64,000 nucleotides of DNA from Prorocentrum cordatum (GCA_963575745.1 CAUYUJ010000001.1:2976001-3040000); one strand, 5' to 3'; shown: positions 5,812 to 63,470, counted from the stretch's first letter. Notes: generated from the letters alone by a model not told the origin. A program made the numbers and translations.

Positions 5812-5862
5812 CGCGACCAAAAACGGCTCCGCTGCGGCGAAAGGCTTGGGCCAGAACGGTTG
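5812..5862 (-). other. Two tandem orphan SL relics
   Basis: ACCGTTCTGGCCCAAG (5845-5860) and GAGCCGTTTTTGGTCGCG (5812-5829). 5845-5859 is identical to 1839-1853. Confidence 0.5.
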
Positions 5863-44120: not shown

Positions 44121-45934
44121 CCTCCCTGCCGTCGCTCTGCCTGCTCCTTCCCCCTGGGCTCCTGCACGCCAGGGGCAGCCCAGCTTCTCCACACTGCTTC
44201 TGCTCCTCCTCCTCCTTCTCCTCCTCCTCCTCCTCCTCCTCCTCCTCCTCCTCCTCCTCCGCCCACCGTCCTCATCGTACCGCACCGCCTTCTCTTCATC
44301 TCTCCCTCCTACGTCTTTCCCCTCCTCCTCCTCCTCCGCCCTTCTTCTACTCGGCCCTCCTGCCCCTCCTCTTCCGACTGGTCTTGCTGCTCATCCGCCT
44401 TCTTCCTCCGCCTCCGTGTCCTCCAGGATCCATCCTACGTTCCACCCCTCTGCCTCTCTCAACCCTCACCATTATGTCACCCACCGGTTCCGACCCCATC
44501 TCCTTCCAAACAGGGCTGAGGTGGCGACAATCTACATATCTGTTCCCCTCTTCGGTACAGATCGTTTCGGGCCATCTGGCTTCCTCCTCCACCTCCCCTC
44601 ATCACCCTCATCCAACTCATGCCCCCACTTCACCTCCGACTCCGAAAAGATCCGCCATGGTGGAATAATCCACACTGAGCAAATCATACTTGTTTAAACC
44701 AGGACATCCACATGTCGGATTTCCAAAGGCTGCTCGCGTGCCTCTCGTGATCCCGCGTGAGTTTCCCAGAGGCCAGAGGGCCCACGACGGACCATGAGGA
44801 CCCTGCGAGACCCCAAAGACGGTCCAACTGAACTCCAAGACGGCCAGGAAGCGTTCCAAGGCGCCGAAGACAGACACAAGACGACCACAGAGGCTCGCAA
44901 AACGCCCCAAGATAGATACAAGAGGACCGCGCAGAGGACCCCGAGATGTCCAAACCAGTGATTATCCAAAATATGTTGGATTGTGTTAGCGCTATCGAAT
45001 GTTCAGGCTTCCAACACCCGAAGATGGCCCACGAGGCTCCCAATATTGCACTCCGACGGCCCCAGGGGCCTCTGAGACGGCCCCAAGGCGGCCCCAAGAG
45101 GGCACAGGAGGCACCCAAGAGGACCGCGCTGGGCCCCAAGAGGGCCCCGGGAGGAGCCCAAGAGGGACCCGAGATGAAACCCTGAGCCTTCTCACCAAAG
45201 ATGGCCCCGAGTCCGCCAGCGGGACCCCAAGGAGGCTCACAGATGCTGCAAACGTCCCCTGAGAGACCCTGAGACAGACAGACAGACAGACACCCTCTGT
45301 CGGGCAAGAGCCCGACCCAGGGCGGGGCGGGGGTGGCAGGCACCGCGGTGCCCCAGTACCTCGCGAAGCCCTCTCCCAGACTGCCCCATGCAACCGCGTC
45401 TGCAGCGCGAGCCACCCATGCTGGCCTCTGCGTGTTAAAACTCAGAATCCTGATCTAAGAGACCCCGAGAGGCATGCTGGAGGCCCCAGGCACGCCTCCG
45501 ACGTGCCCACAGGAGGTTCCCCAAGGGGACCCCCCAGGACGCCTCTGTGGTATGCCGCCCGTCCTCGACCCAGGCGCGGTGGCGGGATGGGCCGAAGGCC
45601 ACTGCGGTGGGGGCATTGGGTACGGAAGCATTGGATAGCCAGTGGAACTCCAATCGCGGATTGGCAGTGGATATTACGGCCGCCCTCATCAGATAAGGAA
45701 TCCTCCAGGGTCTGCAGCCTCCTGGGCGCATTCCTGAACCAACGCCCCCACCGTGGATCCGCCGCCCCCTGTTGGCTTGCCACAGGGGTGCCTGGCGTGC
45801 TGGATCCTACGGTGTTTGGTTTCGGTTCTTTTCCAACGGAGCCTTGGGGCTTCGGAGCCGCGGAAGGCCCACTTGGAAGGGAGGCCGGCTTGGTAAGCCT
45901 TACAAGCGGTTGCACCCTTTACGCTCTCTTACAG

Positions 45935-46126
45935 CGGGTTGCTACATATTTGATAACTTGTTCGCTAAACCTTCCTAGCCGTGATAGCTAATCAATTTAC
46001 ATCGGGTTGCTAGTGCGTTTACTATCGCGTTACCAAGGGTTAGCTAAATCCGCCTGTGGGGTTGAACGGGTTAGCTAAGCCCCGCTAAGTAGGTTAGCTA
46101 ACCCCCTAATCAAGTTAGTAACTCCA
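45935..46126. repeat. TTAGCTAA-rich AT-richer block (left of gene cluster)
   Basis: Multiple ggttagctaa/gggttgcta motifs; related in inverted orientation to 57817-58190. Confidence 0.55.
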
Positions 46127-46683
46127 GCGGAGCATTTTTTTGTTGTGTTCATGGGGGAGAAATAATGCTACGAGGTTGGACGCGTAACGAATTCCAGGCT
46201 GCGGCGGGTCACGTCGACCCCCCACTAAAATACAAATCGAAGCTACGATCGCCGAAAAATTCGCCAGACCCACCACGCGTGGCCGCCGAGGCGCGGTCAA
46301 AATGGATCGGGCTGCCGCCTAAAACGGCGACCTATCGTATCGTACGAGGGATCACAAGGCCTGGGCCCCTGGCGATAAAAGTGGGGCGGCGGAGTTGACG
46401 CTAGCCGTGATCTGTGTCGGGGGTCTTAGGGGGGACAGGGGGAGGGGAGAGGAGGAACGGAGCAGACGCTTTTCATTTCGGCACATCCTCACACGCTTCG
46501 TTGCCACATAGGTAGCTCCACGGAAGGCCCAAGTGTGCATGTTCATATGCTTCCCAGCATATAATTTCGGCACTCCCCTCACACGTTTCGACAGAGGATG
46601 GAGGGGGGGAATACCTGAAAAGGGGGAGGGCTAATCCACTCCCAGGTGGTGGGGGAGGAGGACTATAGTTTTTGTGCTATGCT

Positions 46684-48726
46684 TTACTCCACCAGCGCCA
46701 GGGGATGAAGTACAGTTAAGACAGCGTCGTTGCCACAAACGGTCAACACTTCAATCAAATCAACCAAGTCCGCAAACATAGGCTCACCTGACTTTGTCCA
46801 CGTGCTGTGCCAAGGCTTTTTTGTCAGGCACCTGAAAGGCTGAACTGCAGCGTACGGCACAGAATTCGTCGACGCAAAGAAAATCACCCGAGCAACGATC
46901 CAACCCGCAGTGGATCTGACAGCCACGAAATCACGAACCCATGCAACATCGAATTCGTTAAACCTGGCTTTGCCAGATGCTTGGTGGTCTGTTGATCTGA
47001 ACACTTCTGTTAAAAACTTGCACAACTTCTTATTCGGCGCAGTCGGCGCTACCAATCCTACAGCAAGGTCTAGCCAAGGTGCGTCGTGCAAGTTGAAAAA
47101 ACTCTCTGCCACAACTTCTCGGATCACGGCCTTTGTGTCTTTCTGATGGTCTTCTCCAAATTTGAGCACTGATTTATGTTTGCGCTCTAGCGGCAGCGTG
47201 TGGGGCGACCACCCCCACTTCGCCACGTAGGCTGAATGGTGCAAGATCGCATGGTGTTTCCACAACGCCCCGTCTGTGCCGAAAGCCTTCTCAGAGGCTC
47301 GAAGGAAATTCTCAGTGGCCCGCGCAATTGCCTCGCTTGAAATGCCCAATTTAGCCGTACTCCAATGGAATTGTACGAGCGTGCAACATGTGATAATCGC
47401 CTCGCATTCATCATTGTGCAACCCACTGGGAAGGATCCTGGTTCTGAAGAAATGTGCTATCGGGAGATGCATGCTCAGCGCCTCGGAAGCGCTGCAACTC
47501 CAATACGCCTTCTTCCAATTAGAGTCGGCCCGCTTTTGTTTCCACATGTCAATGCCTGTGACGCCCTTGCTTGATATTCGCCTCGGCCACGTGAAAGACT
47601 CCATGAATTTAAGAACGTGCGACGGTTTGAAGCCAGAGAAGCTAATCGCCCATAAGGCCAGAAATAGTGTTTGTTGAAATATGCCCTGGAGCAGATTGTG
47701 AACCCAATCGTAAACGTTTTGCAGCGGCGGGTCCAGGATTTCTCTCAGCTTACGATTGTGCAACATATTGAAGCCAGAATGCGCCCAACCACGGCGCTGT
47801 TCTTTATCTTCGAACAGCCCCTTTTTCATTGCAGGCTTAGACATGGCAAGGTCGTCGATTATGTGCAGCACCATAGCCTTGGTTGTAGGCTCGCATTCTC
47901 GAAGAGAAAAAACCTTGGAGTAATCTTTGAGATGGGCAGCCCCCTCGAGTTCACCAGCAGCAAGCCAGTTCTTGTTGACGATGTTGCAGCAGTGCAGGCA
48001 GCATTTCGTCCCCCCGCTCCCTTTGCAGAGCCAAACGCTGTGGAGCGCTGACTCATCGCCCAGCATGATGCTGAACACCGCGTGCAGCCTGAACCCGCTC
48101 CCGTCACCGTAGTCCACGTTTACGCCAGCATGCTCCAAATCGTGGCCATCTGGATTGAACATACGAAGTAAGACTGCACCCATGAGCTGCGCCATCCCAG
48201 CCTCGCAGTCCTGGATGTCCACGGTTCTGACGCAGCCGACGCAGAGCCAAGCGTCCTCTTTGCAAAGGACTGCCGCGCCCAGCTCAAGAAACGACATGTA
48301 CAGATTTTGCGTGGCCCTCTTATTCCACTGTTTGAGCTTATTACCAGGTTTGGCCTCGTCGCTGTAAATAATGATGTTCCATGGTGATTGCAACGAACAA
48401 GGCGCCTTTGCGCGCGCTTCCTCGAGGAAACAACGCCACCTGTTACATTTTCCTAGTGCGTGCAAGTATGGCACTGGATCTGCTATCTCGACATCCAAGG
48501 CCTTCCCTTTTTTGGTAGTTAGCTGTATTGTGCACATGACAGGTCCATACATTGTGTTTTGGAGGGCTTGCATGTCCCTGGCTGCACGAATGTCCTTCGT
48601 CGAACATGCATCTGGTAGCTCGCCCTGTTGAGCCAACTCGATGAATTTTGAGAGCGCAACCTTAGTTGTGTGAGGGAGCGCATACCTGATCTCCGATATC
48701 CTGCGGAGCTTCGCTGGCCTGTCCAT
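46684..48726 (-). CDS. CACTA/EnSpm-Plavaka-like DDE transposase, 680 aa, intronless
   Basis: IIIYSDE (D1), LGDESA (D2), KGSGGTKCCLHC, YDWVHNLLQG, KHHAILH, LERKH (E): the motif order of CMC-group transposases; uninterrupted ORF. Confidence 0.8.
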   Translation of the reverse strand: MDRPAKLRRISEIRYALPHTTKVALSKFIELAQQGELPDACSTKDIRAARDMQALQNTMYGPVMCTIQLTTKKGKALDVEIADPVPYLHALGKCNRWRCFLEEARAKAPCSLQSPWNIIIYSDEAKPGNKLKQWNKRATQNLYMSFLELGAAVLCKEDAWLCVGCVRTVDIQDCEAGMAQLMGAVLLRMFNPDGHDLEHAGVNVDYGDGSGFRLHAVFSIMLGDESALHSVWLCKGSGGTKCCLHCCNIVNKNWLAAGELEGAAHLKDYSKVFSLRECEPTTKAMVLHIIDDLAMSKPAMKKGLFEDKEQRRGWAHSGFNMLHNRKLREILDPPLQNVYDWVHNLLQGIFQQTLFLALWAISFSGFKPSHVLKFMESFTWPRRISSKGVTGIDMWKQKRADSNWKKAYWSCSASEALSMHLPIAHFFRTRILPSGLHNDECEAIITCCTLVQFHWSTAKLGISSEAIARATENFLRASEKAFGTDGALWKHHAILHHSAYVAKWGWSPHTLPLERKHKSVLKFGEDHQKDTKAVIREVVAESFFNLHDAPWLDLAVGLVAPTAPNKKLCKFLTEVFRSTDHQASGKARFNEFDVAWVRDFVAVRSTAGWIVARVIFFASTNSVPYAAVQPFRCLTKKPWHSTWTKSGEPMFADLVDLIEVLTVCGNDAVLTVLHPLALVE

Positions 48727-48740
48727 TTAACAAGCTGGGT

Positions 48741-48761
48741 CTTGAGCCAAAACAGGCTACA
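48741..48761 (-). other. SL relic 14 nt upstream of the transposase ATG
   Basis: TGTAGCCTGTTTTGGCTCAAG. Confidence 0.85.
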
Positions 48762-49369
48762 CAAACGCACATGCATGGACAATGTATTACACATATACAC
48801 ATACATATTACAATCACAAGCTAACGCACACCATTTGCGCACGACAAATAAGAGCACGTGGCCGCAATGATTGGCTACATATGTGTACTATGTTGTTGAC
48901 AGGTTGCCGTGTGACTTTAGGTTATGCGTAAATGTTGTCGTTCGTAGCTGTGCGTTGTTGTATGGTGTGCGCCAATTGTTCTTAAGCCGTCTTGGAGCGA
49001 TCGGTGGCCGCCTCAGGGCCTCAAGGGCTCTCTTAAGCAGTCTCGGAAACCATGCAAGACAGCCTTGAGGCCTCTTGGGGAACGTAGTTAGGCAATGATG
49101 GAACATATTGGTGCCATCTTGGGTCGTCTCGTTTGGCTGTGTTAGGCCATATTCAGGCATTGATGCAGTATTGGCAAGAGTGGCAGGCGCATGGGCAGCA
49201 GGGCTATCAAGAGCAGGAGCAACGTGAGCAGCAGGAGTTGCAGGAGCAGGAGCAGCAGGAGTGGCAGGATTGACAAGGAGGGGACAGGAAGAGGAGGATG
49301 CGTAGGAGAATGAGGGAAGGATGGCATAGGAGGAGGAGTGGGAGGAGGAAGGGTGGATGAGGAGGAGAA

Positions 49370-49455
49370 ACCAAAAACAACAACAATTTTCAAAATCAAA
49401 AATTACAGTCGGTCAAAACCGACAACAATTTCAAAAATCAAAAAATGCAGTCGGG
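49370..49455. repeat. About 45-bp A-tract/palindrome repeat (also at 51856-52019 and 56165-56280)
   Basis: aattttcaaaatcaaaaa..cagtcggtc...accgac units. Confidence 0.7.
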
Positions 49456-49684
49456 AGGAGGAGGATGAGAAGATGCATGATGATTCGGTTATGGTGAATG
49501 ATCATGTGGATGACTCGATTGTGTTTACTCTCAATCTTGTATATCTGGTTTAATACCAAACGTGATGTGCAAATGCGCACATTCGGCACAGCTGGCAAGC
49601 TGTCAAACCTAAGACAGATTGCATACCCATATGCTGTGTTGCACAGGAAGAGCGCCCACTGAATGCAAGCAGCACGCACAAGCT

Positions 49685-51469
49685 CTAGGCCGAAGCAAGA
49701 TCTTTGTATGCTTTGATGATGTTCAGAGCTTCGCTGAACGATTTGTCGGGGGAGTCACCGTACGGCACACACTTCTCAGCCCCACGCTTTGCGATGTTGG
49801 GCCAGACCCTCCAGCCGCCCTTTGAATTTGAATGCGAAACCCTACCACCTAGATACTCCACGGACCCACTCTCAGGCATCGGGGGGCGCTTGGCCACAGT
49901 ATGCGTCGAAGCAGCTGGCCTCTTGCCGACAAACGTGTTGACCGAACCGCCGCTCCTGCCTGCGCCTCTGCCCCGACCGCGGCCCCTGCCGCTCGTGGCT
50001 GCGCCCCTGCCAGCAACGGCCGCGGTGACAGCGCCGCCTTTGTTGCGTGACTCATTGCCGTCATCATCGTCTGACGCATCGGACTTGTCGCCCTTCTCAG
50101 CAGCCTTGGCAGCCTTGGCAACTGCCAGCGCCTTCGCCTCAGCGGTCGAGCTCGCGAGCTTGTCCTTCTTCGCCTTGGCCTTGCGAAGGAGCTCCTCGTA
50201 CTCAGTCTCAATGGCTTTAATCTTCTTCTCAGCTTCAGCAACTTCATCTGTTGAAGACTTGGCCCCGTCGAACTCGCTGAGCGCTGTGCCAAATGCTGGT
50301 CTCTGTGCACTTGGTGCAGGTGCCTCGGCCTTGTGCTGCCCGAGTGGCGCTGTCGGAGGAGGCGTGGTCGGGCTGACAGCGTTGCCGCTGCTGCTCGCGC
50401 CAGCGGGGCTCGCGCCAGCGGGGTTCGCGCCAGCAACGGAACGCGCAGGATGCTGCATCTGAAGTTGGAAAGTGCGGGGTTGCTGCGCACGCTGGTCAGG
50501 CGAGACCCACTCGATGGCCAGTGGCTGAGATGCCCAAGGCAGACCAGCAGCTGGAACCATCGACATCTGCTGGAAAGCTTGCTGTGGTGTCAGGCCTTGC
50601 TCCATTGCTGCGGCCATGAAGTCCTTGACGGGCATGTTGCCGAATGATCCAGCCGCACCAGCAACCATCGGCGTTCCACGCGTTTTCGGCAAGAGGTCCC
50701 TCACGTGCTTCCGTGAAGACCTGCAGCTCGTCAAATCCCTCACGACGAAGAAGTTACCTACCACCTGCGCGACTGGAGGGTCCGACGGGTCTGGGAACAT
50801 AGCCTGGAACACAGCTTCTGGAAGGTCGTGTGGGTTCGCGGGGTACTCCTTGACGAGAGGTAAGTCGGCCTCGGTCAGTAGAGCTGCGCGCGTCGTCTTG
50901 AACGACTTCGTCAACTTGCCAACCTCGTCGAACAGCTGCATGGCAGTCACGTCCTCGGACCAAGCATACATGGCGAGCATGGCGATGACGTCAGCACACG
51001 CTGGAGCGCTCGGTTTGGTCATACCACCGAGCTTCATGCGTTCGATGACAGTATGTATCTTAACTCCATCGTTGAATGGCGTAGTAGGGTCGCTGAAGAT
51101 GTTGAAGTCCGTCTGTGTGAAATAGTTCAGCACGTTTGAAGTATTCTCTTTCTTCGCAGAGAATGATTGGAACTCGTGTGGGCCAAGCTTTTCGGGCTTG
51201 AAGCTACGAATGAGTGTCTCCTCAACTGCGTCACTCAACGCGTGTTTCTGTGGTTCAGAGAACGCTGTCAATGAAATCGACTCAAGCAACTTCTTAGCAC
51301 CCTCACTGTCAACCGTGACGGAAATCGATTTGATCATTTGAACTATTGAAGAACACAGTGATGCACGGAGCCTGTCAGCCCTGACAGCGTCTCTGCGAAG
51401 CTGAACCTGTGTGTTGATCAAGGTTCCAGCGTCCCTGAGCTCATTAATGATCTTCTGGATGCTAGCCAT
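49685..51469 (-). CDS. 594-aa protein, probable element accessory factor; small C-terminal putative DNA-binding domain
   Basis: Long non-repetitive ORF: globular N-terminus, low-complexity linker, RGRGRG, C-terminal YLGGRVSHSNSKGGWRVW...SFSEALNII. Confidence 0.75.
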   Translation of the reverse strand: MASIQKIINELRDAGTLINTQVQLRRDAVRADRLRASLCSSIVQMIKSISVTVDSEGAKKLLESISLTAFSEPQKHALSDAVEETLIRSFKPEKLGPHEFQSFSAKKENTSNVLNYFTQTDFNIFSDPTTPFNDGVKIHTVIERMKLGGMTKPSAPACADVIAMLAMYAWSEDVTAMQLFDEVGKLTKSFKTTRAALLTEADLPLVKEYPANPHDLPEAVFQAMFPDPSDPPVAQVVGNFFVVRDLTSCRSSRKHVRDLLPKTRGTPMVAGAAGSFGNMPVKDFMAAAMEQGLTPQQAFQQMSMVPAAGLPWASQPLAIEWVSPDQRAQQPRTFQLQMQHPARSVAGANPAGASPAGASSSGNAVSPTTPPPTAPLGQHKAEAPAPSAQRPAFGTALSEFDGAKSSTDEVAEAEKKIKAIETEYEELLRKAKAKKDKLASSTAEAKALAVAKAAKAAEKGDKSDASDDDDGNESRNKGGAVTAAVAGRGAATSGRGRGRGRGAGRSGGSVNTFVGKRPAASTHTVAKRPPMPESGSVEYLGGRVSHSNSKGGWRVWPNIAKRGAEKCVPYGDSPDKSFSEALNIIKAYKDLASA

Positions 51470-51524
51470 TCCTACTCGTCACAACTATGTAAGTGACACG
51501 CGGGGAGCGATGAAACCACCTGCG

Positions 51525-51544
51525 CGTGAGCCCAAATTGCTACG
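51525..51544 (-). other. SL relic upstream of the 594-aa ORF
   Basis: CGTAGCAATTTGGGCTCACG matches SL CGTAGCCATTTTGGCTCAAG at 17 of 20 positions; 55 nt from the ATG. Confidence 0.75.
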
Positions 51545-52855
51545 CCTGAAAGCATATAACTTGTATATGTGAGGGATTGTTTTGTGTGAAGTAATGCGCC
51601 ATTCCGAACCACATACATATGATATATTCCAAATGCACATGTATTTGTGGTAACTCAACGCACAAATTCAATATATTGATCAATGTTCTGGCTCACCGCA
51701 GAGGTTCAGTCACACTGGAAAGTCGATCCCTTCTTGACCGAGGGAAGACCACGAACGATGCGGAGGAGGAGGATGGAGGATACTGTGTGAGGAGGATGAT
51801 GAGGGAGGAATGATGATGAGGAGTGGGTGGGAGGACGAGAGAGAATAATTAGGATATCAACGGCAATTTCTTATATTAGAAATGTGCGTTGATGAGAACC
51901 GACGACGCTTTTTGATTTTGAAAATTGACGTCGTCCCGTATCGACAGCACTTTTTGATTTTAGAAAGTGGCGGTGGTCCGGACCAACGTGGAATTCTAAA
52001 TTCAAAAATTGCCGTTGATTTCAAATATCAGCACCACAGGTGGTTAGTGAACCGAATTAGAAGCACATTGAGTGGTTCTGAACACCTTTGGGAGCACGTT
52101 GAGCAGTCTTAGTGCCATATTGGAGCTGTCTTTGTGGCCCTCTTGGGCTCTCTTGGAGCCGTCTTGAAACCAGTTTGATGTATCGTGGGCTGTCTTGGGG
52201 CCATCGTGGGCATCTCCTGGATTGCAGAAGATGGCATCAAGAGGGCACTTCGGTCCACCCGACGTGCGGTATTTATTAGAAACTACATACCTCCATATTG
52301 GGTTGCTATCTTGGGCAGTCTTGGGAGCGTCTTGGGCAGTCCTGGTGTCATTTCGGACCCCCTTGGGCCGTCTTGGGGCCATCTTGGAGCAATATTGGGT
52401 GCATCTTTGGTCGTCATGAGGCCATTTTGGAGGCCTCTCGGTCGATCTTCGGGCTGTATTGGGGGCCTCTTGGGTTCTCTTGTGCAGTCGGAAGGCCGAA
52501 ACTGCGCGAAGTACAGAAAACACAATTCACATCAATGGTTTTGAAACCAAGTCAACTTGGACAATTCACTTTTTTTTTCAAAACCTTCGCTGGGAGTGGC
52601 GGTTTCTGTAAAAATGCTACATGTGTCTTTGGCGCCGTCTTGGGCTTTTTTGGATCCCCTTGGGTCCCTCTTGGAGCCGTCTTAGAACCCCCTTGGGCAC
52701 TCTTGGAGCAGTCTTCCTCATTGTGACGATGCTTGTTTTTTTTAATCGCTGGCTACGCCTGGCTCGAGGAACTCCACGGCGCGCATCGCGCGTAGCAAAA
52801 CAGCTTGCACGCACAACAGCTCAAGCCTGACAGAATATCAACTGAAAGTGAAACT

Positions 52856-53503
52856 TCAACACACGGGCTCGATATCTGCATCTTCACCGCCGCACTCCTT
52901 CCCGACATCACAAGTTGATTCACGTGCTGACACCTTGCGCCTCTTCTCGTCACCCTTGGTGTACGTTCGCTTATCTGGCTCACTGATCTCCGTTGCACGG
53001 ATGAACAACCATTTCAGAACATTGGCATCGAGCGAGACCATAGCCTTAGTTGGCTTGACGTTCAATGGCATGTGTGTGTGTACCTCGCGGATCTCTTCCC
53101 CCGCCTTGGTCAGGAAAGCTGGGAGCACGACGTCCACGATCGAGCTCGACGTGCCCTCTTGGAGGTGCTGCAACGCCTTCTCCTGGGTCCTCCTGCGGTA
53201 ATCTGATTGCTGACCTCCGCGAGTGTTTGTAGCGCCGAGCTCCTGTTTGCTGGCTTCCTCCTGGAGCTTACACAACTCGGTAATGAGGACAGAAGCACGG
53301 GCTGAGTACGTTCTCTTGTTCACTAGCCAAGACTGCATCATCTTATCGCCTCGCTTCAGCTCGACGAAGTTTCTCCCTCCGACCGTCCGCACAGGCACGC
53401 CACACCAATCGGGGTGAGTGTTCACAGGAGAACTGATAGTCACAGTCGTAGTGAATGTGATATCTTTCATCACTGAAGTATGGAAGGGAACTGGTTCCGA
53501 CAT
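52856..53503 (-). CDS. 215-aa hypothetical protein (start MSEPVPFHT)
   Basis: Non-repetitive part of track ORF 52856-53827; the ATG at 53503 lies 50 nt downstream of an SL relic. Confidence 0.65.
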   Translation of the reverse strand: MSEPVPFHTSVMKDITFTTTVTISSPVNTHPDWCGVPVRTVGGRNFVELKRGDKMMQSWLVNKRTYSARASVLITELCKLQEEASKQELGATNTRGGQQSDYRRRTQEKALQHLQEGTSSSIVDVVLPAFLTKAGEEIREVHTHMPLNVKPTKAMVSLDANVLKWLFIRATEISEPDKRTYTKGDEKRRKVSARESTCDVGKECGGEDADIEPVC

Positions 53504-53553
53504 CGAAACAGTGAAATACACCTGATGCGGAAATCTGAATGAACGCAATATGC

Positions 53554-53573
53554 TTTGAGCCAAAACGGCTATG
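53554..53573 (-). other. SL relic upstream of the 215-aa ORF
   Basis: CATAGCCGTTTTGGCTCAAA. Confidence 0.8.
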
Positions 53574-54425
53574 TACACACGTACGCACACACGCACGCAC
53601 GGTGGGAGGAAACGAAGGATGCAGGAGGAGGACGAGGATGAAGAGCAGCAGCAGGAGCTTGAGTGGAAACAGTGGGAGGAGCAGGAGGACCAGGGAAAGG
53701 CGGAGGAAGGAAAATGAGGTGGGCGACAACATTGAGCAATGCCTCGGATCTTGAAAAAGGACCGCGTTGGGGCGAGAGCGCCATTCTGAACGACGGGAGC
53801 CCCCACCCAAGATGCCCAAGGCCCCAAGATGCCCTTAAGGCCCCAAATACAGCCAGCCAGCCAACCAACAACCCAACCAACCCCTGGCCGTGCTACGCGA
53901 ATTGTATGCGAGGCCCCAAAACACCTAAGGCCCCAAGATGCCTAAGGCCCTAAAATGTCCAGAAGGCAAAACATACAGCCAACCAGCCAGCAAGCCACCC
54001 AAACAACCTCTGGCCGTGCCACGCGAAGCGTATACGAGTCCCCAAGACGCCTAAGGCCCCAAGATGCCTAAGGCCCCAAGATGCTCCTTAGCTCACTGGG
54101 CCTTGAAAGGCCGAAGACCTCGGAGGACCCCGAGGCACGCGGGGCACCCAGGCCCTCAGGGGCCGTCGCCCATTCCAGCGCACCCCTCACACGGATCGTG
54201 GAGTCTGGACGTGAAGGGCCGAAGGCCTATGGATAAGGGATCCGTTGAAAGGGGGTAGTTCTTTCTGTACCCCCGTCCCCCCTCATCCTCCTGTCTGCTT
54301 CGCCTCTCATGTTTTGCATGTGCAGCTGCACGCCAAAAGGGCTTCGCAGCGTGACGGTGCAGCGTCGTCGCTTCGGCCTATGCCGCAATCCACACGCGCA
54401 GTCGCAACGGCTGTAAAGGAACTAA

Positions 54426-57356
54426 TTAGCGGCGGGACCGCTTCGCTGGCGAGCCGATTTCACTAGACGGTGTCTCGTGAGGAACTGGGACGCCCTGGTA
54501 CAGCATCTCGCCCTCCTTTACCTTTCGGTGGTTCTTCAGCATGGGCAGCTTGACCTCCATCTCATCTGCGTCATCGCCAGTCTTGAGATGCAAGTTGATC
54601 TTGTGGGTCATCCAAACCGTAGTGAGGTTGGGCTGCCACACTTGGTTTGCAAACGGAACACACCAAAATGGTGATACGAAATTCTGATTCTCGCCCTTGC
54701 CGGCCGCGAACTGCGGCATGAGGTGGAAAAGCGTGCGAGGTACCCGCACTAATTCACCCAAATCGATTGCCCTATCTGGGGCCTTCTGGTCTGGCAAACG
54801 GGTCTTAATGAATTGTGTCGCTGGCACAAGCGTGATCTCGCCTGCTTTGAAATCCCGTTTCGCAACCACAGCGTAAGGGTTGTGGTACACCTTCAAGTCG
54901 TGGTTGATGTTGTTCCAATGAGCATTCTCGCTCAGAGCGTTGAGGACGATGGTGATCTGCGCCTTCATGCAATCAAGTGCCCAGCTCCAGTTCGTCTCGG
55001 GAACCACGCTCATGACGTCGACCTCCTCCTGCGGCTTACTGGTAGACACGCACCAGAGGTCCTTGAGGTTGGCCAGCATTACGGAGTTATCCTCCAACAA
55101 GCCTTCGTGCACGCCAGTCGGGGAGAGGATGGCCGTGGCGATGCCCAACTCTTTCACGGTCCACAAGTTGCACTGGCATTCAGGATCAGGTTTTTTCAAT
55201 TTGACCACAGCACCAAGCTTGAACCCAAGCTGCATCATCTGAAACGCTGGTGACTTGGCATCTTGCAACTGCTGCAGCGCCAAGTGTTTCGCCTGCTCGG
55301 GCGCTTCGGGTTTGCTCTCGACGGTCGAGACGTTCCCCGAGGACGCAGAGGCAACCTCGGAAGTCAAATTACAAAACAACAATCCTCCTTCCTCCCTTCC
55401 TCTATCCTCTCATCCCTCACCCCTCCTCCGTTCCGTCCCTTCCCTCCGAGGGAGGGGGAGGAGGAGGAGGGGGGGGAGGAGGAGGGAGGAGGGGGAGGAG
55501 GAGGGTGGAGGAGGAGGCGGGGGAGGGATGAGGAGGGAGGAGAAGGGTGGAGGAGGAGGCGGAGGAGGAGAGAGAGAGAGAGAGATAGACAGACAGACAG
55601 AGAGAGAGAGAGATAGGAAGAGGAGGATTTTTTCATGTGCTACGATCACCTTGCCGACTTGCTTCGCGCCGATCCTGTGGCGCGGGAGGAAGGGGTGGTC
55701 GATCGCAATGCCCGTAATGGCAGCCAAGCCGTCGACGAAGACCTGGAAGGCAGCGTCCAGGGACTTGTGCTCCACGCCCTCCTTGCTGGCCTTACCCTTT
55801 TTCATAAGGAACAGCGCCAGCCGAATGTCGTGCTGGCCCGTCAACTCAAGCTTCTTGATTTTGTCGAGCCCGTAGTTGTCGCACATGGTGCGGGCCTGCT
55901 CCATCATGCTCTCGGCCCGCTGCACGTCGTCGTAGATGGACTTCGCAGTCAGCTTCGACAGGTCAGCATCCTTCAGCAAGCACGCCCTATTGTCAATCAC
56001 CTTCTCGATGGGGGAATCCATCTGCGCGAGCAGCGCTGCAACTCGGATCCTCATCGGCGGAACCACTGATTTCGGCCAGCTCAGCGACGCCAGCTTGTCG
56101 AAGAAGACGCCGCCGACGTGGCCGAAGGAAACACCAGCTCCGCGCGGCGCCTGACGCTGACAGACGACGATTTTTGATTTTAAAAATTGCCGTTGGTCCT
56201 GACCAACTGCATTTTTTGATTTTGAAAATTGCAGTCGGTCCAGACCGACTGCACTTTTTGATTTTAGAAAACTGTTGGTGTGGTTAGTTCCTCCTCCTCC
56301 TCCTCCGCCTCCTCCTCCCTCTCCTTCTCCTCCTCCTCCTCCCCCTCCCCCTCCCACTCATCCCACTCATCATCATCACCCGTGTCCGCCCCCTCCTCCT
56401 GGCCTTGAACAGTGCCACCTTCATGTCGCGAGCCTCCTCCACCAACTCCCTCGGGACAACGCTAGCGAACTTCTTCAAGGACTGCGCCCATGCTGCCCAG
56501 AACGGGTTCGTGAGCAACGCGCCATCGACCGCGGCCTGCCACGCCAGCTTGTCGTCCTGCACATTGAGCTCCTCCACCTGATGTTTGAACGTCGAGTGCA
56601 TGGTCAGCAAGCCCTCGAGCTCCGAGACCTCAGACGTGTCCACGCGGTTCAACGCCGCGTAACCAATCTGGATGACCTCTGGGAAGGCCTTGATGACTTC
56701 AAAACTGACCACGGTCCATTCCAGCCCCCTGGAAAGCGCTGTGTTCAGGCTCGGCCACTTGGTGATGAGGAACTGCGAATCCAAAGAGCCGCTGGGCGCG
56801 ATGGTCTCATCGGTGCATGGCAAGGCGGCCTGGATGGCGCGCAGAGTCACGTTGGAGTGCGTGCCGCCGAAGGAAGCCAATTCCATCTTCTCGCAAGGTG
56901 GGAGGCCGCACTTCCTGCTGTGCTCTTCATTCCAAGAAATCCAGCCGCCGCACGCATCATCAGTGGTCGGAACCTCCACGGCGAACGCGCCCTGGCAGGC
57001 TCGCGGGTAGCTCCAGCCAGCCCTGCAGTGCTTGCCGAGGTTCGACAAGCTCTTCTGCACCTTGGAGTCCTCCTCCTCCACCTCCTCCTCTTTCTCCTCC
57101 TCCACCCCCTCCTACACCTCCTCATCTACCTCCTCCTCCTCCTTGGCACCTCGAAGCCCAAGCCGCCGCGATTCTGCGGCGAAGCGCCGACCCTGGTCGG
57201 CGCGACCGTGGTGACCCGCAGGAGCTCCTTCTTGCTACCGAGGATCCCGAGGATGCTGTCCCAAGCCTTGACCACCTCCGCGTCCTGCTTGAACCGACAG
57301 ATGACCTGCCGCAAGTCGCCGCTGACCTCCCGCAGGGCCTGCTCCACGGCTGGCAT
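54426..57356 (-). CDS. 4-exon gene, about 764 aa: ParB/Srx-like N-terminus plus degenerate SET-like C-terminus
   Basis: Exons 57356-57150, 57060-56404, 56150-55650 and 55355-54426 join in frame. Introns are GT-AG (89 nt), GC-AG (253 nt) and GT-AG (294 nt). Motifs: VGASPQNRGGLG, FGGTHSNVTLR; VVAKRDFKAGEI...PNL...LKNHRKVKEGEML. Confidence 0.7.
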
Positions 57357-57394
57357 GGTTGCAAAAGCGCCAGGCCGATCGGAGCGAAGGCGAC

Positions 57395-57414
57395 TTTGAG
57401 CCAAAACGGCGATG
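57395..57414 (-). other. SL relic upstream of the 4-exon gene
   Basis: CATCGCCGTTTTGGCTCAAA, 38 nt from the ATG. Confidence 0.75.
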
Positions 57415-57816
57415 CGAACGACGACGCCAGGCAGCCCCAAGATGCCCCATGGCCACAGGAGGCACCAGGAGGCACCTGCAGGAGGCACCAGGAGGCGTCA
57501 GGAAGTCCCAGGAGGCTCCAGGACTTTCCAGGACTTGCCAGGAACTCACAGGAAGTTCCAGAAAGCGCCAGGAAGTCCCAGGATGCCCCAGGAAAGAAAC
57601 ACCAAGGGAGCTCAGGATGCCCCAGGAGGCTCCAAAATTTCCCAAGAGACCGCAGGAGTTCCCAGGATCCGCCTAAAGCCCCTCAGGATGCCGAAGGAGG
57701 CTTCAGGAAGCCCCCCCTAGGCCACTATGAGGCCCCAGGAAGCCACAGGATGCATCAGAGAGCCATATGAGGCCCCAAGAGCCCCAGGAAGTCCTAGGAG
57801 GCCCCAGGAGGCTCCA

Positions 57817-58190
57817 GGAGGTTGCTAATCTTCTTAGCTAAGCCGCTAACTCACTTAGCTAACCTGATTAGCTAACTAGCTTAGCGGCTTAACCTAAGGA
57901 TGTTAGCAACCCTTGCAAGTCACGTGCTAACACGTTGCCAATCGACGTCCGCAATATACCTAACGCAATGTATTCCTTTAGCTATATCGTCTATCATGAT
58001 ATAGGCATGCGGTGGCGTTGGTAACGACTTGTATAACGAACCCTAAGCCGCTAATGCGTTGCAACAGTTATAAGCACGTTATAAAAGTTATCAAGATGTT
58101 ATTGGGAAGTTGCTAAAGAGTTGGTAGAAGTTGCCAGAGGCTTAGCAAGTTGTTATAACGACGACAAGTGTTAGCAAACCCGGCACTCTT
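57817..58190. repeat. TTAGCTAA-rich block (right of gene cluster; similar sequence again at 58945-59083)
   Basis: ttagctaa occurs three times within 57835-57875, plus ttagcaaccc and aagttatcaa. Confidence 0.55.
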
Positions 58191-58239: not shown

Positions 58240-58925
58240 CTGTCCGGGCGCCCGGGCGGCCCGCGGGCGTCCGGGCGGCTGGGCGCCCGGGCGTCCGGGC
58301 CGCCCGGGCGTTCGGGCGCCGAGCGCTCTGGGCGTCCGGGCGGCCCGGGCGGCCCGGGCGTCTCGGCGGCTGTGCGGCTGGGCGCTGTCCGGGCATCCCG
58401 GCACCCGGGCGTCCGGGGCGCCCGAACGGCCGCGGCGTCTGGGCGGCTGGGCGCCCGGGCGTCCGGGGCGCCCGGGCGGCAGCGACGTCCGAGCGGCTGG
58501 GCGCCCGGGCGGGCCCTCCGGCGTTCGGGCGCCGGCGCTCTGGGCGCCCGGGCGGCCCTGGCGGCCCGGCGGGGCTGTTTCGCTGGGCGCCGTCCGAGCA
58601 TCCCGGCGCCCAGGCGTCCGGGGCGCCCGAGCGGCCGCGGCGTCCGGGCGGCTGGGCGCACGGGCGTCCGGGCCGCCCGGGCATCCGGGCGCCGGGCGCT
58701 CCGTGCGTCCGGGCGCCCGGGCGCTCTGGGCGTCCCGGCGGCCCGGCGGCCCGGGCGTCCGGGCGGCTGGGCGCCCGGGCGCGTCCGGGCGGCTGGGCGC
58801 CCTGGCGGCCGCGGCGTCCGGGCGGCTGGGCGCCGGGGCGTCTGGGCCGCCCCGGCGTTCGGGCGCCGGGCGCTCTGGGCGTCCGGGCGGCCCGGGCGGC
58901 CCGGGCGCCCGGGCGGCTGGGCCGC
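58240..58925. repeat. Extremely GC-rich (CCGGGCG/GGCGTCC)n degenerate repeat
   Basis: Read directly from the sequence. Confidence 0.85.
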
Positions 58926-59177
58926 TGCTGGGATCACCGCTCTGCTTAGCATGTGGATAGATAGCTTATATCTACTTAGCCGTCGACATAACATACTTAG
59001 CTAAGCTACATAGCGCGCGCCCGCTATCCAAGTTAGCAGGGCCGCGCTAACCAGGATAGCCTAGTCGGTCTATCCTAGATAGCACGTGTGGCCGCACGTC
59101 CCGCGGCCCCATAGGAAGCTCCACACACACACACACACACGCGCACACACACACACACACACACACGCGCGCACACT

Positions 59178-59238
<61 letters not shown>

Positions 59239-59455
59239 GCACACACACACACACACACACACTCTCTGGCACAACCCTCACACGTTTCGTGGCCCAACAT
59301 GTGTGGCCACACCCAGTCTGGCACACCCCTCACACGTTCCGTGGCCCCGCATGCGTGGCCACACCCACTTTGTCACACCCCTCACACGTTTCGTGGCCCC
59401 GTGTTCTGAGATCGTCGTCGTCGTCCTCCTCGTCGTCGTCCTTGTCCTCGTCGTC

Positions 59456-59494
<39 letters not shown>

Positions 59495-59783
59495 TGCTCT
59501 GGAGTCGGCGGGGGGGGCGGAAGCCCTACGTTCTGCTGGGGGCGGCGGGCGGGGCGCAACCCTGGATCTGCCCACATAGCGAAACGCCCCCAGCAAAGCG
59601 CCCTAAATAGCAAGGGGGGCGCGGAAATGGCAGAAGCCTACGGAATAGGAAGGCGGGGGGGAGGGAGCGACGACGACTAAGACGACGACGACGACGAAGC
59701 TCCGAACGGTCTGCGGCCAGAGCGGTCTGCGCTCGCAAGCTCCGAGCGGTCTGCGGCCAGAGCGGTCCTGCAAAAACCGCTGA

Positions 59784-59823
<40 letters not shown>

Positions 59824-60129
59824 TCGTCCTCCTCGTCGTCGTCGTCGTCGTCGCCCTCGTCGTCGTCGACGTCGTCGTCCTCGTCGTCGTCGTCGTCGTC
59901 CTGTTCGCCAAGTCGCACGATGCCCGACTCGGCGCACGGGAGCGGTCTTCGCTCGCAAGCTCATTCATGAGCTGTCCTGCAAAAAACCTCCGAGTCGTCG
60001 TCGTCGTCGTGGTCTAGCTGTTCACCTCGTCGTCGTCGTCGTCGTGATTCGGTTCGGCCAGTTCGTCGTCGTCGTCGTCGTCGCCGCCGCCGCCGTCGCC
60101 GCCGCCGCCACCCTCGCCGCCGCCGTCGC

Positions 60130-60160
<31 letters not shown>

Positions 60161-60688
60161 CCAAGAGGCCTCCAATACGGCCCAAGAGGCCTCCAAGAGG
60201 TCCTCCAGGAAGGCCCGAAGATGCCAAAATCACCGATTCCCCTTAGGTTGTTGAAGGGTTTTGGCATTTACGCCTTTTCGGCCTTCCGTCGGCCGAAGAC
60301 GGCCCAAAAGGCCCCCAAGGTCGCCCCAAGAGGGCCCCAAGACGGCCCAAGAGGCTTCCAAGACGCCCAAGATGGCCTCCAAGATGGCCCTGAGGCGCCC
60401 CAAGAGGGCCCCAAGTCGGTTCAGGGAGGCCCCCAAGACGGCTTCCGACGGCGTCAGACGGGCCAGGAACGCCCTAAGACGGCCAAAGAGGCCCCCAAGA
60501 GTATGGCCGCCCGCCTCGGAGCGATTGGCCTCGTCGTCGGGCGGGGTGAAGGGCTCGCCCTGCGTGGCCATCTCGGGCTGGGGATCTCTCGGGGCTGGGG
60601 GAGTCCAGGTCTGCTGCGTTAAAGCTGGGGGCCAAGGATGGCTGCGGACTCAGAGGGGCCGCAAACACCCTAACAGCAGTGAGAGTGA

Positions 60689-60795
60689 CCCCGATGGTTG
60701 TCCCGATGGTTGTCCCGATGGTTGTCCCGATGGTTGTCCCGATGGTTGTCCCGATGGTTGTCCCGATGGTTGTCCGAATGGATGTCCCGATGGTT
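60689..60795. repeat. 12-bp tandem repeat (CCCGATGGTTGT) x about 9
   Basis: Read directly from the sequence. Confidence 0.93.
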
Positions 60796-61226
60796 ATAGC
60801 CGCAGCGCTCGAGAGGGGCGACCCCGGACCCACAACCAAGGCACGGTGGCTGATCAGATGGCGAACTTCCACGATCGTCGCAAGCTCTCGGTCCTTCTGG
60901 GGGTCGGCTGACGAGGAGGAGGACGGGATGATGATGATGAGGATGATGATGATGAAGGGACGTTTCCACGCGAGCAGCGCCGCGAGCGCGCGTGCAGGTA
61001 CAACTCAAACGTCATGCGTGTCTCCTCGCGTGTGTCCTCCTCCTCCTCCTGCTCCTCCTCCTCCTCCTCCTCCTCCTCCTCCTCCTCCTCCCTCTCATTC
61101 CCGTTATCGCCATCATCATCCCAATCCATAGTCACTTTGCTCCTGCTCTCCCCCCCTGTCCTCATCCCCTCCCCCTCCTCACCATCCGCCTCCCTCCATA
61201 AATACACGGCACCACCCATCTTTACC

Positions 61227-63417
61227 TTATGGGGGTAAAGCACCGTTGCAACAGAACCTGCAGCAGCAGGAAAAAAACACACACGGTTCTATGATGTTAT
61301 GGGTCTGGTACAGACCTGGAGCACTCCAAACTATACACTTTGCCGCACTGGTGCCCATCTCCTGGACATCCCACTCCGATATGCACGAAAGTAATTTGCC
61401 GCCCACTTTCGCATGAAAGAGGACCTCCCCGAACGCAACCTGATGCGAAGCGTTACTGCACGCAACGCAATCCCCAATGCAGACTGCTCTACCGCGCACA
61501 AAGCAGGATGACGAACTGACAACATCCTTCTCGCTGCCGATGGGCAGAGGCAAAACTTTACTGATGGACGAAATGAGCTGGCGGCTGGCGGGCTTAGGGC
61601 CCAAGAGGTCCACGCCGAAAAGTGCATGATGCTCCACGTCGTGGAGGTGCTGCAGCGTCACCTCCTGCATTATGCCTTTTTCATACCCTTTCGTATTGTG
61701 CCGCCCGCCAGCAAAGCGCTTTATAACGCGATGCTTCCTCTCCATGAGGAAAGTTGAGAGGAGGCATCTGTGCCGCTCCAATTGAGATGGCAAATGGAAA
61801 ATCCAATGGTCCTTCGGCTTAAAAAGCTGGACCCCGTAGACCGCTCTGTGGCGCTCCATGTGGGATGAAATCGCCTGGGCTAGCATGAAAGGCTGCACGT
61901 GGCCACAATTGGCCATGATCAACAAGTTAATCACATCGCACGAACAAAATGCACTAATAATCTCGCCCTTAAGCTCATCTGCGCCATCGGCGTTCGAAAC
62001 CACATCGCTGAGATACCGCTGAAGAACGGGCGCGAGCGAAACATATTCACTTGCGGAGCCCTGCATTGTTCCACCACTCATGGTATTCTTTGCATGCGCA
62101 TAGCCCCTCGGCCAGCACCAAGCCTGAAGATAATCGCGCAGGCAGTCGTGTCCTCTACGAATGCTCGACAACCTACCCAGCATCTCGTCCACCTCCCTCT
62201 CGAATAGCCCACCTATCATATAGCAGTGCATCCAGTCCCAAGAGGTGGCCTCCGCAACTGGCACCGCCAGATGCCTGTCCTGGAGGAGGCCGTCGCGCTG
62301 GTAGGACCACCCGAACAAGACCTCGAGCCGCTTGACCTCGGCCCACCGTCCAGCATCGGCTGCATCACTGAGGCGCCGCTGAACCGCCATGATCTCCTCG
62401 GTCGTGTAGAGATCGAAGAGGCTGACGTCGGTGCAGTGCGCTGGGATCAACCACCCAGTCGGGTCAGGGGGAAGATCGCTTCTGGGGCACACGACGTTCT
62501 TGCGCAGCATGCAGGGCTTGATGCCCGTGGCGCCCTTCACCTGCAGCACGAACTTGCGGGCCCGCTCGTCCTGGATCATGATCTGCAGCTTGCCCTGCAG
62601 CATCGCGACCTAGGGGCGGGGCTGCCACCGTCCTCTTTCCCATCCTCCTCCTCCTCCTCCTCCTTATCCCCCTCCCCTTGCCGACCCTCCGCCCTCTCGT
62701 CGTCGTCGCCACCCTCCCCGCACGGGGGAAAAAATCACGCACCCCTCCATGGAGGGAGGGGTGGTTCGGCGAAGTTGGGGGCGGGGTGAGTAGCATGGGG
62801 GGGCGTCGGACCTGGCCGCCGATGCGCAGAGCAACTCCACGTCGGAGATCGGGCCCTGCAGGCAGGCCGAAGAAAAGCTTCAGGCACTCCTTCATCACCG
62901 TGGACACGCCACCTACCACATCGTCCAAGATGCTGCTACGCATCGCGGCAATGGTGTTCCAGCAGAGCTCGTTGCTGAGGGCCGGAAAACCGAGCTCGGC
63001 AAAGCTCCAATAGAATGCTTGCGTCTTGCGACGGTTCTTGCCGTCCAAGACGTTGCCAGGGACGATCTCGTCGCTATAGATATACACGTTCATCGTCCCA
63101 TGATGCTTGGCCGCCAACTCGAGGAACATCTCCTGGTACGAGGGTGATGTCCTGCAGGCCGCCTCGAGCCACGCGAATGGATGCTGGAACCACGCGCGCA
63201 CGTCCGATGACCCGAGCCGCTTCTCCACGAGAACGGGGCCGAAACTCGTGTCCTCCATGACTCTGGCCTCGCGGTGCCTGGCCAAGGTCGACGCGCTGAA
63301 CGCCTCGGGGAGGCCCTCCCTCTGGATGTCGGCCATCAAGGCGGCCGTCGCGGCGGCCGTCGCGTGGGACGACCTGCCGTACACGACAGTGCGCATTCTC
63401 TTCGGAACAGAAGGCAT
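61227..63417 (-). CDS. Second CACTA/Plavaka-like transposase, 2 exons (63417-62812, 62609-61227), about 662 aa; possibly decaying
   Basis: YIYSDE..PGN, FYWSFAELG, IQDERA, KGATGIKPCML, WDWMHCYMIGG, KPKDHWIFH, MERKH are collinear with the 680-aa ORF. A GT-AG intron at 62610-62811 restores the frame. Confidence 0.8.
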
Positions 63418-63447: not shown

Positions 63448-63470
63448 CTTGAGCCAAAAATGGCTACGGT
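63448..63470 (-). other. Near-perfect full-length SL 30 nt upstream of the second transposase ATG
   Basis: ACCGTAGCCATTTTTGGCTCAAG is the canonical SL plus one T. Confidence 0.92.

Follow-up and report, generated by a model that had tools for sequence, protein, structure and literature searches.

In the 64,000-nucleotide stretch of Prorocentrum cordatum DNA studied here (GCA_963575745.1 CAUYUJ010000001.1:2976001-3040000), to which we refer as the window, four genes that we call A, B, C and D form a block between positions of about 45886 and 58050. Our preferred reading, which we hold only tentatively, is that this block represents an old, low-copy, transposon-like unit, whose conserved core is made up of gene C and of gene D, the latter encoding a BAH-bearing transposase with a RAG1 type of fold, and whose motif arrays enclose genes A and B as well. 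A boundary of the unit that takes in all four genes is plausible but unproven, and the 12-kb block may have been mobile as one piece. An initial annotation, made from the sequence alone, had proposed the four genes as parts of a single mobile unit, an interpretation that is, on the whole, partly supported by our analysis. All four genes were found as open reading frames (ORFs) where they had been placed, on the minus strand (Table 1), and this is the strand of every long high-complexity ORF between 46 and 64 kb, including a fifth gene, D', located outside of the block. The window is GC-rich (0.56-0.69), with lower values (0.52-0.54) in the stretch from 46 to 54 kb.

The family and the predicted fold of gene D

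No Pfam family was recognised at the cut-off in any of the seven ORF pieces of genes A to D, and for D none was found even at E<=1. A word-based search with D yielded six relatives (22-50% identical), and a HMMER search with the alignment of these relatives retrieved 9828 representatives at E<=1e-3, with 6550 at E<=1e-10 and 2681 at E<=1e-30. Most members of this family are approximately 680-700 residues long and can be aligned end to end. D and its six relatives remained without a Pfam match at E<=10, and 54 further members were without a family at E<=0.01, one of them giving a sub-threshold match to HxlR. When the D-family profiles were compared with PDB sequences, no chain was found at E<=10, and no relative was found when the D alignment was compared with prokaryote genome contigs.

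The structure of D was predicted with AF2. A first model, based on 7 sequences and having a predicted local distance difference test score (pLDDT) of 62, already pointed to RAG1, and it was superseded by a model based on a 98-sequence alignment, which reached a pLDDT of 95.3 and a predicted template modelling score (pTM) of 0.92. The top structural match of this model (VIA-align) is the RAG1 core (4wwx_E, Z 15.5, root-mean-square deviation 5.1, 436 residues), with residues 40-559 of the model corresponding to RAG1 residues 497-1008. Further matches of the same core are amphioxus BbRAGL (6b40_E, Z 13.9), HzTransib (6pqn_A, Z 9.3) and the P element transposase (Z 9.0), followed by the weaker ISCth4 (Z 7.8) and Hermes (Z 7.3). 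For residues 554-670, the best counterparts are BAH domains, namely those of ZMET2 (Z 10.8), DNMT1 (BAH1, Z 9.7) and ORC1 (Z 8.7). A Foldseek search, which had been suggested by the initial annotation, likewise placed RAG1 chains at the top (E 1.7e-7 to 1e-5), together with BbRAGL (7e-5) and HzTransib (9e-4).

The pattern of conserved residues agrees with this assignment. Among the 98 sequences, the family positions showing no variation, or a conservation of 90% or more, are D123/E124, D224, C243, C246, D340, H343, K490, H492, H496, E514/R515/H517 and D599. D123 is located in strand 116-125 of the model, D224 right after strand 216-223, and E514 in helix 511-524, a placement that suits the DDE triad of an enzyme with an RNase-H fold. 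A Cys-x2-Cys motif stands 19 residues past the second Asp, and two His residues precede the Glu by about 18-22 positions. In a comparison of layout, this arrangement would mirror D708...C727/C730, H937/H942...E962 of RAG1, in which C727/C730 and H937/H942 are the zinc ligands. The catalytic residues of RAG1 are given as D600, D708 and E962 in bioRxiv 10.1101/698332. Judging by predicted fold and conserved residues, D is a transposase that stands nearest to RAG1, ProtoRAG and Transib. The annotation of D as a DDE transposase is confirmed in this way, that is by predicted fold only, and its assignment to CACTA/Plavaka-like elements found no support: neither D nor 60 of its relatives gives a Pfam match to CACTA, Plavaka or KDZ, and the nearest solved fold is that of RAG1/ProtoRAG/Transib. 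We know of no solved CMC/KDZ structure for comparison, and D may be distantly related to CMC/KDZ.

A search of the window in six frames with a hidden Markov model of the D family found only D and D'. The latter, approximately 30% identical to D, matches the profile in two pieces (positions 16-208 and 215-671), and the low-complexity sequence that separates them (about 62815-62610) is a putative intron. Read against the 98-sequence alignment, D' keeps the DDE residues, but at family position 246 it has an Arg instead of the conserved Cys.

Linkage of genes C and D, and the ends of the block

Linkage was assessed in the five contigs bearing relatives of D (L001-L005) that one metagenome scan gave, by tblastn with all seven ORF pieces. 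In three of the five, a homologue of C is located directly upstream of a homologue of D and in the same orientation: in L001 (N-terminus of C at 1921-2718, 28% identity, its C-terminal motif at 4140-4289, D at 4765-6849), in L002 (C-terminus of C at 356-526, D from 909) and in L004 (C match at 1441-2594, D from 3199). The D homologues of these three contigs are 36-39% identical to D. L003 and L005 hold only partial matches to D (residues 308-678 and 46 residues, respectively) and no match to C. The C protein has a conserved N-terminal domain (about residues 1-257) and, beyond a middle part of low complexity, the motif GGR-x-SHS-x-SKGGWRVW at its C-terminus; the N-terminal domain and this motif are what its homologues have in common. 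Given this linkage, C is to be seen as a conserved partner of D, and not as the cargo gene for which it had been taken. It might be an accessory protein, perhaps a DNA-binding one. A complex prediction for D with residues 1-300 of C scored 0.01, which, the fold of the C partner being uncertain, speaks neither for nor against binding. C has no PDB sequence match. A word search with C returned only P0155, a 328-residue fragment in a public eukaryote protein set that is 99% identical to C residues 145-408, and thus a part of C has been predicted or transcribed in a near-identical organism.

What follows D is not the same between loci. In L001 the next gene is a different, small Cys/Trp-rich ORF, and in L004 it is an A-like ORF, starting at 5879, about 650 nt downstream of a frameshifted D copy. 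In the window, A itself lies downstream of D', with 3.9 kb of repeats between them. As A or an A-like gene follows a D-like gene in both L004 and the window, the unit may be permuted, tandem, or confined to C and D.

Gene A is interrupted by three breaks, each of them a low-complexity stretch. In-frame G[T/C/A]...AG joins can be made across every break, and the breaks are therefore putative introns. Since many in-frame G[TCA]..AG combinations are possible, the exact introns are not fixed, save for the GT..AG join 57149-57061, which is suggested by the intronless homologue in L004, an ORF collinear with A1+A2 and devoid of the first gap of A. B, C and D are single ORFs. The proposed ParB/SET-like character of A found no support, as its four pieces are without a Pfam family at the cut-off and A2 and A4 are without a PDB sequence match; A4 is also without a relative among longer proteins. 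B belongs to no recognised family and has no PDB sequence match, and neither A3, A4 nor B gave a match in any of the five contigs. The GC content at third codon positions (GC3) is 0.91, 0.82, 0.85 and 0.72 in the successive pieces of A, 0.64 in B, 0.64 in C and 0.60 in D, and 0.80 and 0.69 in the two pieces of D'. B, C and D are thus alike in being intronless and in having a GC3 of 0.60-0.64, which supports their belonging to one unit. By these compositional figures, A may have had a different history.

Both ends of the block carry arrays of short motifs. TTAGCTAA occurs seven times in the 64 kb, three times at 46040-46101, three times at 57834-57875 and once at 58997. For GGTTAGCTAA, allowing up to one mismatch, 11 matches were found versus 1.32 expected, nine of them within two clusters on opposite strands: the exact left copies are on the plus strand and most of the right copies on the minus strand. 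The ends also have in common the 9-10-mers TTGATAACTT, CGTTACCAA, GGGTTGCTA and TAGCTAATCA, inverted and roughly collinear. Altogether, they share 10 inverted and 5 direct 9-mers, the maximum being 6 when about 3800 segments were drawn at random from the window, and local alignment of 45886-46101 to the reverse complement of 57855-58050 gave a score of 69, versus 32.9 +/- 6.2 (maximum 53) for shuffles. Such arrays were found in the window only outside A and outside D, and none between the genes. The four genes, then, are bracketed by related and probably inverted motif arrays of about 200 bp each, near the coordinates given in the initial annotation. Contig joints such as 45103->60472 and 57816->60180 were considered as empty sites and rejected, as their sides measure only 21-31 nt and lie within GGCCCCAAGA-type repeats.

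Spliced-leader relics, copy number and repeats

A host of the dinoflagellate type has no gene-specific promoters, and all of its mRNAs are matured by trans-splicing of a spliced leader (SL). The dinoflagellate leader, DinoSL, reads CCGTAGCCATTTTGGCTCAAG (PMC9651163). As the initial annotation had claimed, each of genes A to D is preceded by one SL-like relic, 14-55 nt upstream of its ATG, and these matches are well above chance. With up to one mismatch, TTTTGGCTCAAG, the last 12 bases of DinoSL, gives four matches versus 0.29 expected, all on the minus strand (48741, 53554, 57395 and 63448), and the 19-mer GTAGCCATTTTGGCTCAAG, with up to three mismatches, gives two versus 0.00 expected (51525 and 53554). 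The full 21-mer has no match in the window with up to three mismatches, because the relic copies carry one-base insertions or deletions. The relic reads GTAGCCTGTTTTGGCTCAAG for D, GTAGCAATTTGGGCTCACG for C, ATAGCCGTTTTGGCTCAAAG for B and GCCGTTTTGGCTCAAAG for A (a variant common to A and B); that of D', CCGTAGCCATTTTTGGCTCAAG, which the initial annotation had not listed, is the best-kept copy in the window. In all five minus-strand genes between 46 and 64 kb the relic stands directly upstream of the coding region.

Similar relics accompany D homologues elsewhere: in L002, TTTTGGCTCAG precedes the ATG by about 50 nt, and in L004, TAGCCGTTTAGGTTCAAC adjoins it directly on the upstream side. No clear relic was found upstream of the D homologue in L001, where, in the region 7031-7220, an exact TTTTGGCTCAAG is located 170 nt past the stop of this homologue and 14 nt before the Cys/Trp-rich ORF. 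According to the mRNA-recycling model that is put forward to explain such relics (PMC9651163, PMC6050394, PMC5585692), a gene that carries one originates from an SL-trans-spliced mRNA by way of a DNA copy, and each of the present genes would thus have passed through a trans-spliced mRNA and its cDNA. Although the proteins beside them have an identity of only 30-37%, the relics are well kept, and their distance from the ATG varies. Either selection has maintained them, therefore, or they have been renewed again and again. One reasonable possibility, judging from the sequence, is that the U-rich tract and AG of the relic now act as a trans-splice acceptor. The relic would then probably permit renewed SL trans-splicing, by which each ORF could mature from a read-through polycistronic transcript.

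As to other signs of retroposition, introns are absent from B, C and D, the frames of A and D' are interrupted, inspection by eye revealed no poly(A) remnant after D, and the only such trace is an A8 run about 110 nt after B. There, at 52735-52765 on the minus strand, GCGTAGCCA (the 5' part of SL) is followed by GCGATT and the A8 run. This may be what is left of a poly(A) tail next to another relic, or it may have arisen by chance.

Copy number was approached through a DNA run holding 73% of the region's sampled words, with contigs aligned at a likeness of at least 80%; contig depth is not equivalent to copy number. With few differences, portions of the left end and of D, C, B and A are covered by single contigs having a depth of 4.5-8.4, and a contig of run X1 (depth 4.48) covers 45872-46401. 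This hints that near-identical extra copies are lacking and that the genes are low-copy, and the block looks old.

The intergenic spacers and the gaps of A are full of genome-wide repeats. Very high-copy short-period repeats, made of 8-10-mers of the GGCCCCAAGA/CCAGGAGGC type and of the CCCCTCACACGTTTCG family, reach a summed depth of 10^2 to more than 7x10^4. Apart from these, there are units of about 42 nt in which a perfect hairpin of about 22 nt (GCAGTCGGTC..GACCGACTGC type) is followed by an A/T-rich TTTTGATTTTGAAAATTG segment. Six matches to such units were found versus 0.06 expected, all within the block, at 49384-49454, 51860-52020 and 56164-56270, that is in two intergenic spacers and one gap of A, with one site inverted. 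They may represent a miniature inverted-repeat transposable element or a processing signal.

Table 1. Features of the block and of its surroundings; positions are those of the window.
Feature	Position	Strand	Remarks
Left arm, degenerate inverted repeat	45886..46101		three exact GGTTAGCTAA copies: 46038, 46069, 46092
Gene D, 680-residue intronless predicted DDE transposase	46684..48726	-	RAG1/Transib-like core (about 40-559) and C-terminal BAH domain (about 554-670)
DinoSL relic of D	48741..48760	-	14 nt before ATG
Gene C, 594-residue intronless ORF	49685..51469	-	conserved neighbour, upstream of D-family members
Degenerate DinoSL relic of C	51525..51543	-	55 nt before ATG
Gene B, 215-residue intronless ORF	52856..53503	-	start is the first ATG after the relic
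DinoSL relic of B	53553..53572	-	49 nt before ATG
Gene A, four ORF pieces	54426..57356	-	57356-57150, 57060-~56405, ~56150-55650, ~55380-54426; ATG 57356, stop 54426
Truncated DinoSL relic of A	57394..57410	-	37 nt before ATG
Right arm, degenerate inverted repeat	57855..58050		GGTTAGCTAA-type copies on opposite strand, 57834-57877
Gene D', divergent second D-family member	61230..63417	-	exons 63417-~62821 and 62609-61230; outside of the bracketed block
Near-perfect DinoSL relic of D'	63448..63469	-	one extra T; 30 nt before ATG
High-copy short-period repeats	58700-61360, 46480-46530, 52070-52730, 53800-54090, 57440-57830

In the rest of the window, 13 more long ORFs were compared with Pfam and a single match was obtained, to the LRR_6 repeat. 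This is a 445-residue frame of tandem repeats at 13358-14692 on the minus strand, and the match (E 1.5e-5) is weak and the sole Pfam signal outside of the block.

Competing readings and known systems

Several observations weigh against a unit that comprises all four genes. The single mobile unit proposed earlier is supported by the bracketing inverted arrays, the C-D linkage and the fold of D, but a target-site duplication (TSD), an empty site, a sharp terminal inverted repeat (TIR) and a second copy were looked for and none was found, the ends being only degenerate inverted arrays. The best terminal pair of 25 nt (45872/58195) matches at 19 of 25 positions, which by our estimate is no more than chance gives among the roughly 5.5 million pairs tried. 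CAC[AT][AG]TG or its complement occurs only at 47412, 48550, 51354, 52719 and 57723, never paired at the ends of the unit, and none of the occurrences of CACTA and TAGTG coincides with an end of D, C-D or A-D. When the two ends are aligned in direct orientation, a score of 54 is still obtained, owing to the palindromic core of the GGTTAGCTAA motif. In L001, a different motif, GCTTCAGCA, forms arrays ahead of C, in the C-D interval and, in inverted form, past D, so that such arrays may also occur elsewhere than at outer ends. Over 1.9 kb in front of its C homologue, L001 has no A-like or B-like ORF, and the gene order is C-D-A in L004 versus D'-A-B-C-D in the window; the synteny proposed for the four genes was thus recovered for C-D, in three of five contigs, but not for B, which has no relative there. 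Introns and a GC3 of 0.72-0.91 set A apart from the other three genes. In the best DNA run, summed contig depth is 2-14 over gene bodies versus 10^2-10^4 over intergenic low-complexity blocks. Finally, the relics alone do not mark a transposon, because they precede D homologues elsewhere and are common in dinoflagellates (in two Symbiodinium genomes, about 23% of the genes have one, according to PMC5585692).

A part of these observations would be readily explained if only C-D, or D alone, constituted the unit, with A and B being unrelated neighbours in a unidirectional gene array such as is typical of dinoflagellates and the GGTTAGCTAA arrays being intergenic and not the termini of a 12-kb element. 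We regard this as somewhat unlikely, albeit deserving of serious attention. It agrees with C-D being the sole linkage seen repeatedly, with B being without relatives in the five loci, with the deviating GC3 and introns of A, and with L001, both in its lack of A and B upstream of C and in its related arrays before, between and after C and D. What it does not account for is that the arrays of the window lie only outside A and D, and that an A-like gene adjoins a D-like gene twice, in L004 and, after D', in the window.

It is also conceivable, if unlikely, that there is no present DNA transposition at all, and that D belongs to a domesticated or fossil family, whose members multiply through segmental duplication and through retroposition of mRNA or recycling of cDNA, the block being an ordinary cluster of recycled genes. 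Relics before all five genes, 14-55 nt from the ATG, are what such a history would leave, as is their frequency in Symbiodinium; relics well kept before the divergent D homologues of L002 and L004 suggest repeated recent passage through mRNA, and the low copy number at a likeness of at least 80% is a weak point in its favour. On the other hand, retroposition of single mRNAs would break the C-D synteny that is kept in three loci, A and D' have introns, and inverted end arrays are present. Moreover, the DDE, Cys and His residues are kept over 98 divergent members, as would be expected of an active enzyme, and 9828 clusters are more typical of a mobile element.

Quite improbable, in our opinion, is the reinsertion of the whole block as one incompletely processed polycistronic RNA, with an SL on its first gene, poly(A) after the last one and internal relics from earlier cycles. 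The co-orientation of the genes, each with its relic, and an order that seems permuted between the window (D'-A-B-C-D) and L004 (C-D-A) would suit such an event, but neither a poly(A) remnant after D nor a TSD was seen, and both the putative introns in A and the inverted end arrays would be unexpected from retroposition. An integrated viral or episomal element, to which the GC content of 0.52-0.54 against flanks of 0.60-0.69 and the genes of no known family could point, is hardly credible, since D, A4, B and C are without relatives in IMG/VR contigs, D has no match at E<=1e-3 among BFVD structures, and the block is without a capsid, polymerase or packaging gene.

In the transposon-like unit that we prefer, D would act as a cut-and-paste DDE transposase of RAG1/Transib architecture, fused to a chromatin-reading BAH domain, the GGTTAGCTAA arrays would be its subterminal binding sites, and A and B, upstream of C-D and in the same orientation, would lie inside the element. 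Such a design resembles in part several known systems. In ProtoRAG, a second protein, RAG2L, is encoded beside the transposase, as C is encoded beside D here. In the RAG system the chromatin reader is the PHD finger of RAG2; here, it would be a BAH domain fused to the C-terminus of the transposase itself, a domain by which D differs from both Transib and RAG1. C, co-oriented upstream of D, has no detectable likeness to RAG2. The En/Spm elements, which are several kb long, employ a transposase together with an accessory DNA-binding protein (TnpA/TnpD), and subterminal arrays of short motifs in both orientations. The GGTTAGCTAA arrays at both ends and the C-D pair are alike in design to those of CACTA/En-Spm, which does not by itself prove homology, and the block differs from CACTA, Plavaka and KDZ elements in having no CACTA...TAGTG termini, in addition to the Pfam result described above.

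As for RAG1, ProtoRAG and Transib, the resemblance is to the predicted fold of the catalytic core of D, about 520 residues, which is without detectable sequence similarity to them. Transib transposases of about 700 residues, a length similar to that of D, are described in PMC1131882, as are TSDs of 5 bp and TIRs of 38 bp whose first bases are 5'-CACAATG; at the ends of the block, neither a CACAATG-type TIR nor a 5-bp TSD was seen. A Transib element is 3-4 kb long and has one gene, whereas the present unit is 12 kb long and has several. One survey (bioRxiv 10.1101/2021.09.26.461848) counts 35 Transib transposases, a small superfamily found mostly in animals, and ranks alveolates as minor hosts of DDE transposons; as compared to this number, the D family is huge. 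With dinoflagellate SL-relic retrogenes, the block has in common the relic just upstream of every start codon and the lack of introns in B, C and D. It differs from them in a C-D order kept across distant organisms, in the introns of A and D', in showing no poly(A) remnant, and in being a transposase-type system bracketed by inverted repeats.

The searchable literature on Transib and dinoflagellates contains no description of such an element or family; Repbase and subscription journals were outside of this search, and a prior description is possible. On the strength of the structural model, the block may be viewed as a DDE transposon with a RAG1/Transib fold, a new domain and gene architecture, and SL relics that are typical of its host. 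A more far-reaching proposal, which we consider rather unlikely as it stands, is that of a new superfamily-level lineage of RAG1/Transib-fold DNA transposons, massively diversified in dinoflagellates, with C and the BAH-transposase as its core and with SL copies as portable trans-splice acceptor cassettes before every ORF, an adaptation to the host; the 12-kb block with its four genes, bounded by GGTTAGCTAA subterminal arrays, would be its representative here.

RAG1, the assembler of antibody genes, descends from Transib-type transposons. A D family with thousands of members, having its own chromatin reader and residing in protists with SL trans-splicing, would widen both the range and the design space of RAG-like recombinases, and it would put a name on a large block of 'dark' dinoflagellate genes. 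Furthermore, the C partner and the SL relics raise the question of how the genes of a DNA transposon get expressed under polycistronic transcription, when every mRNA carries an SL.

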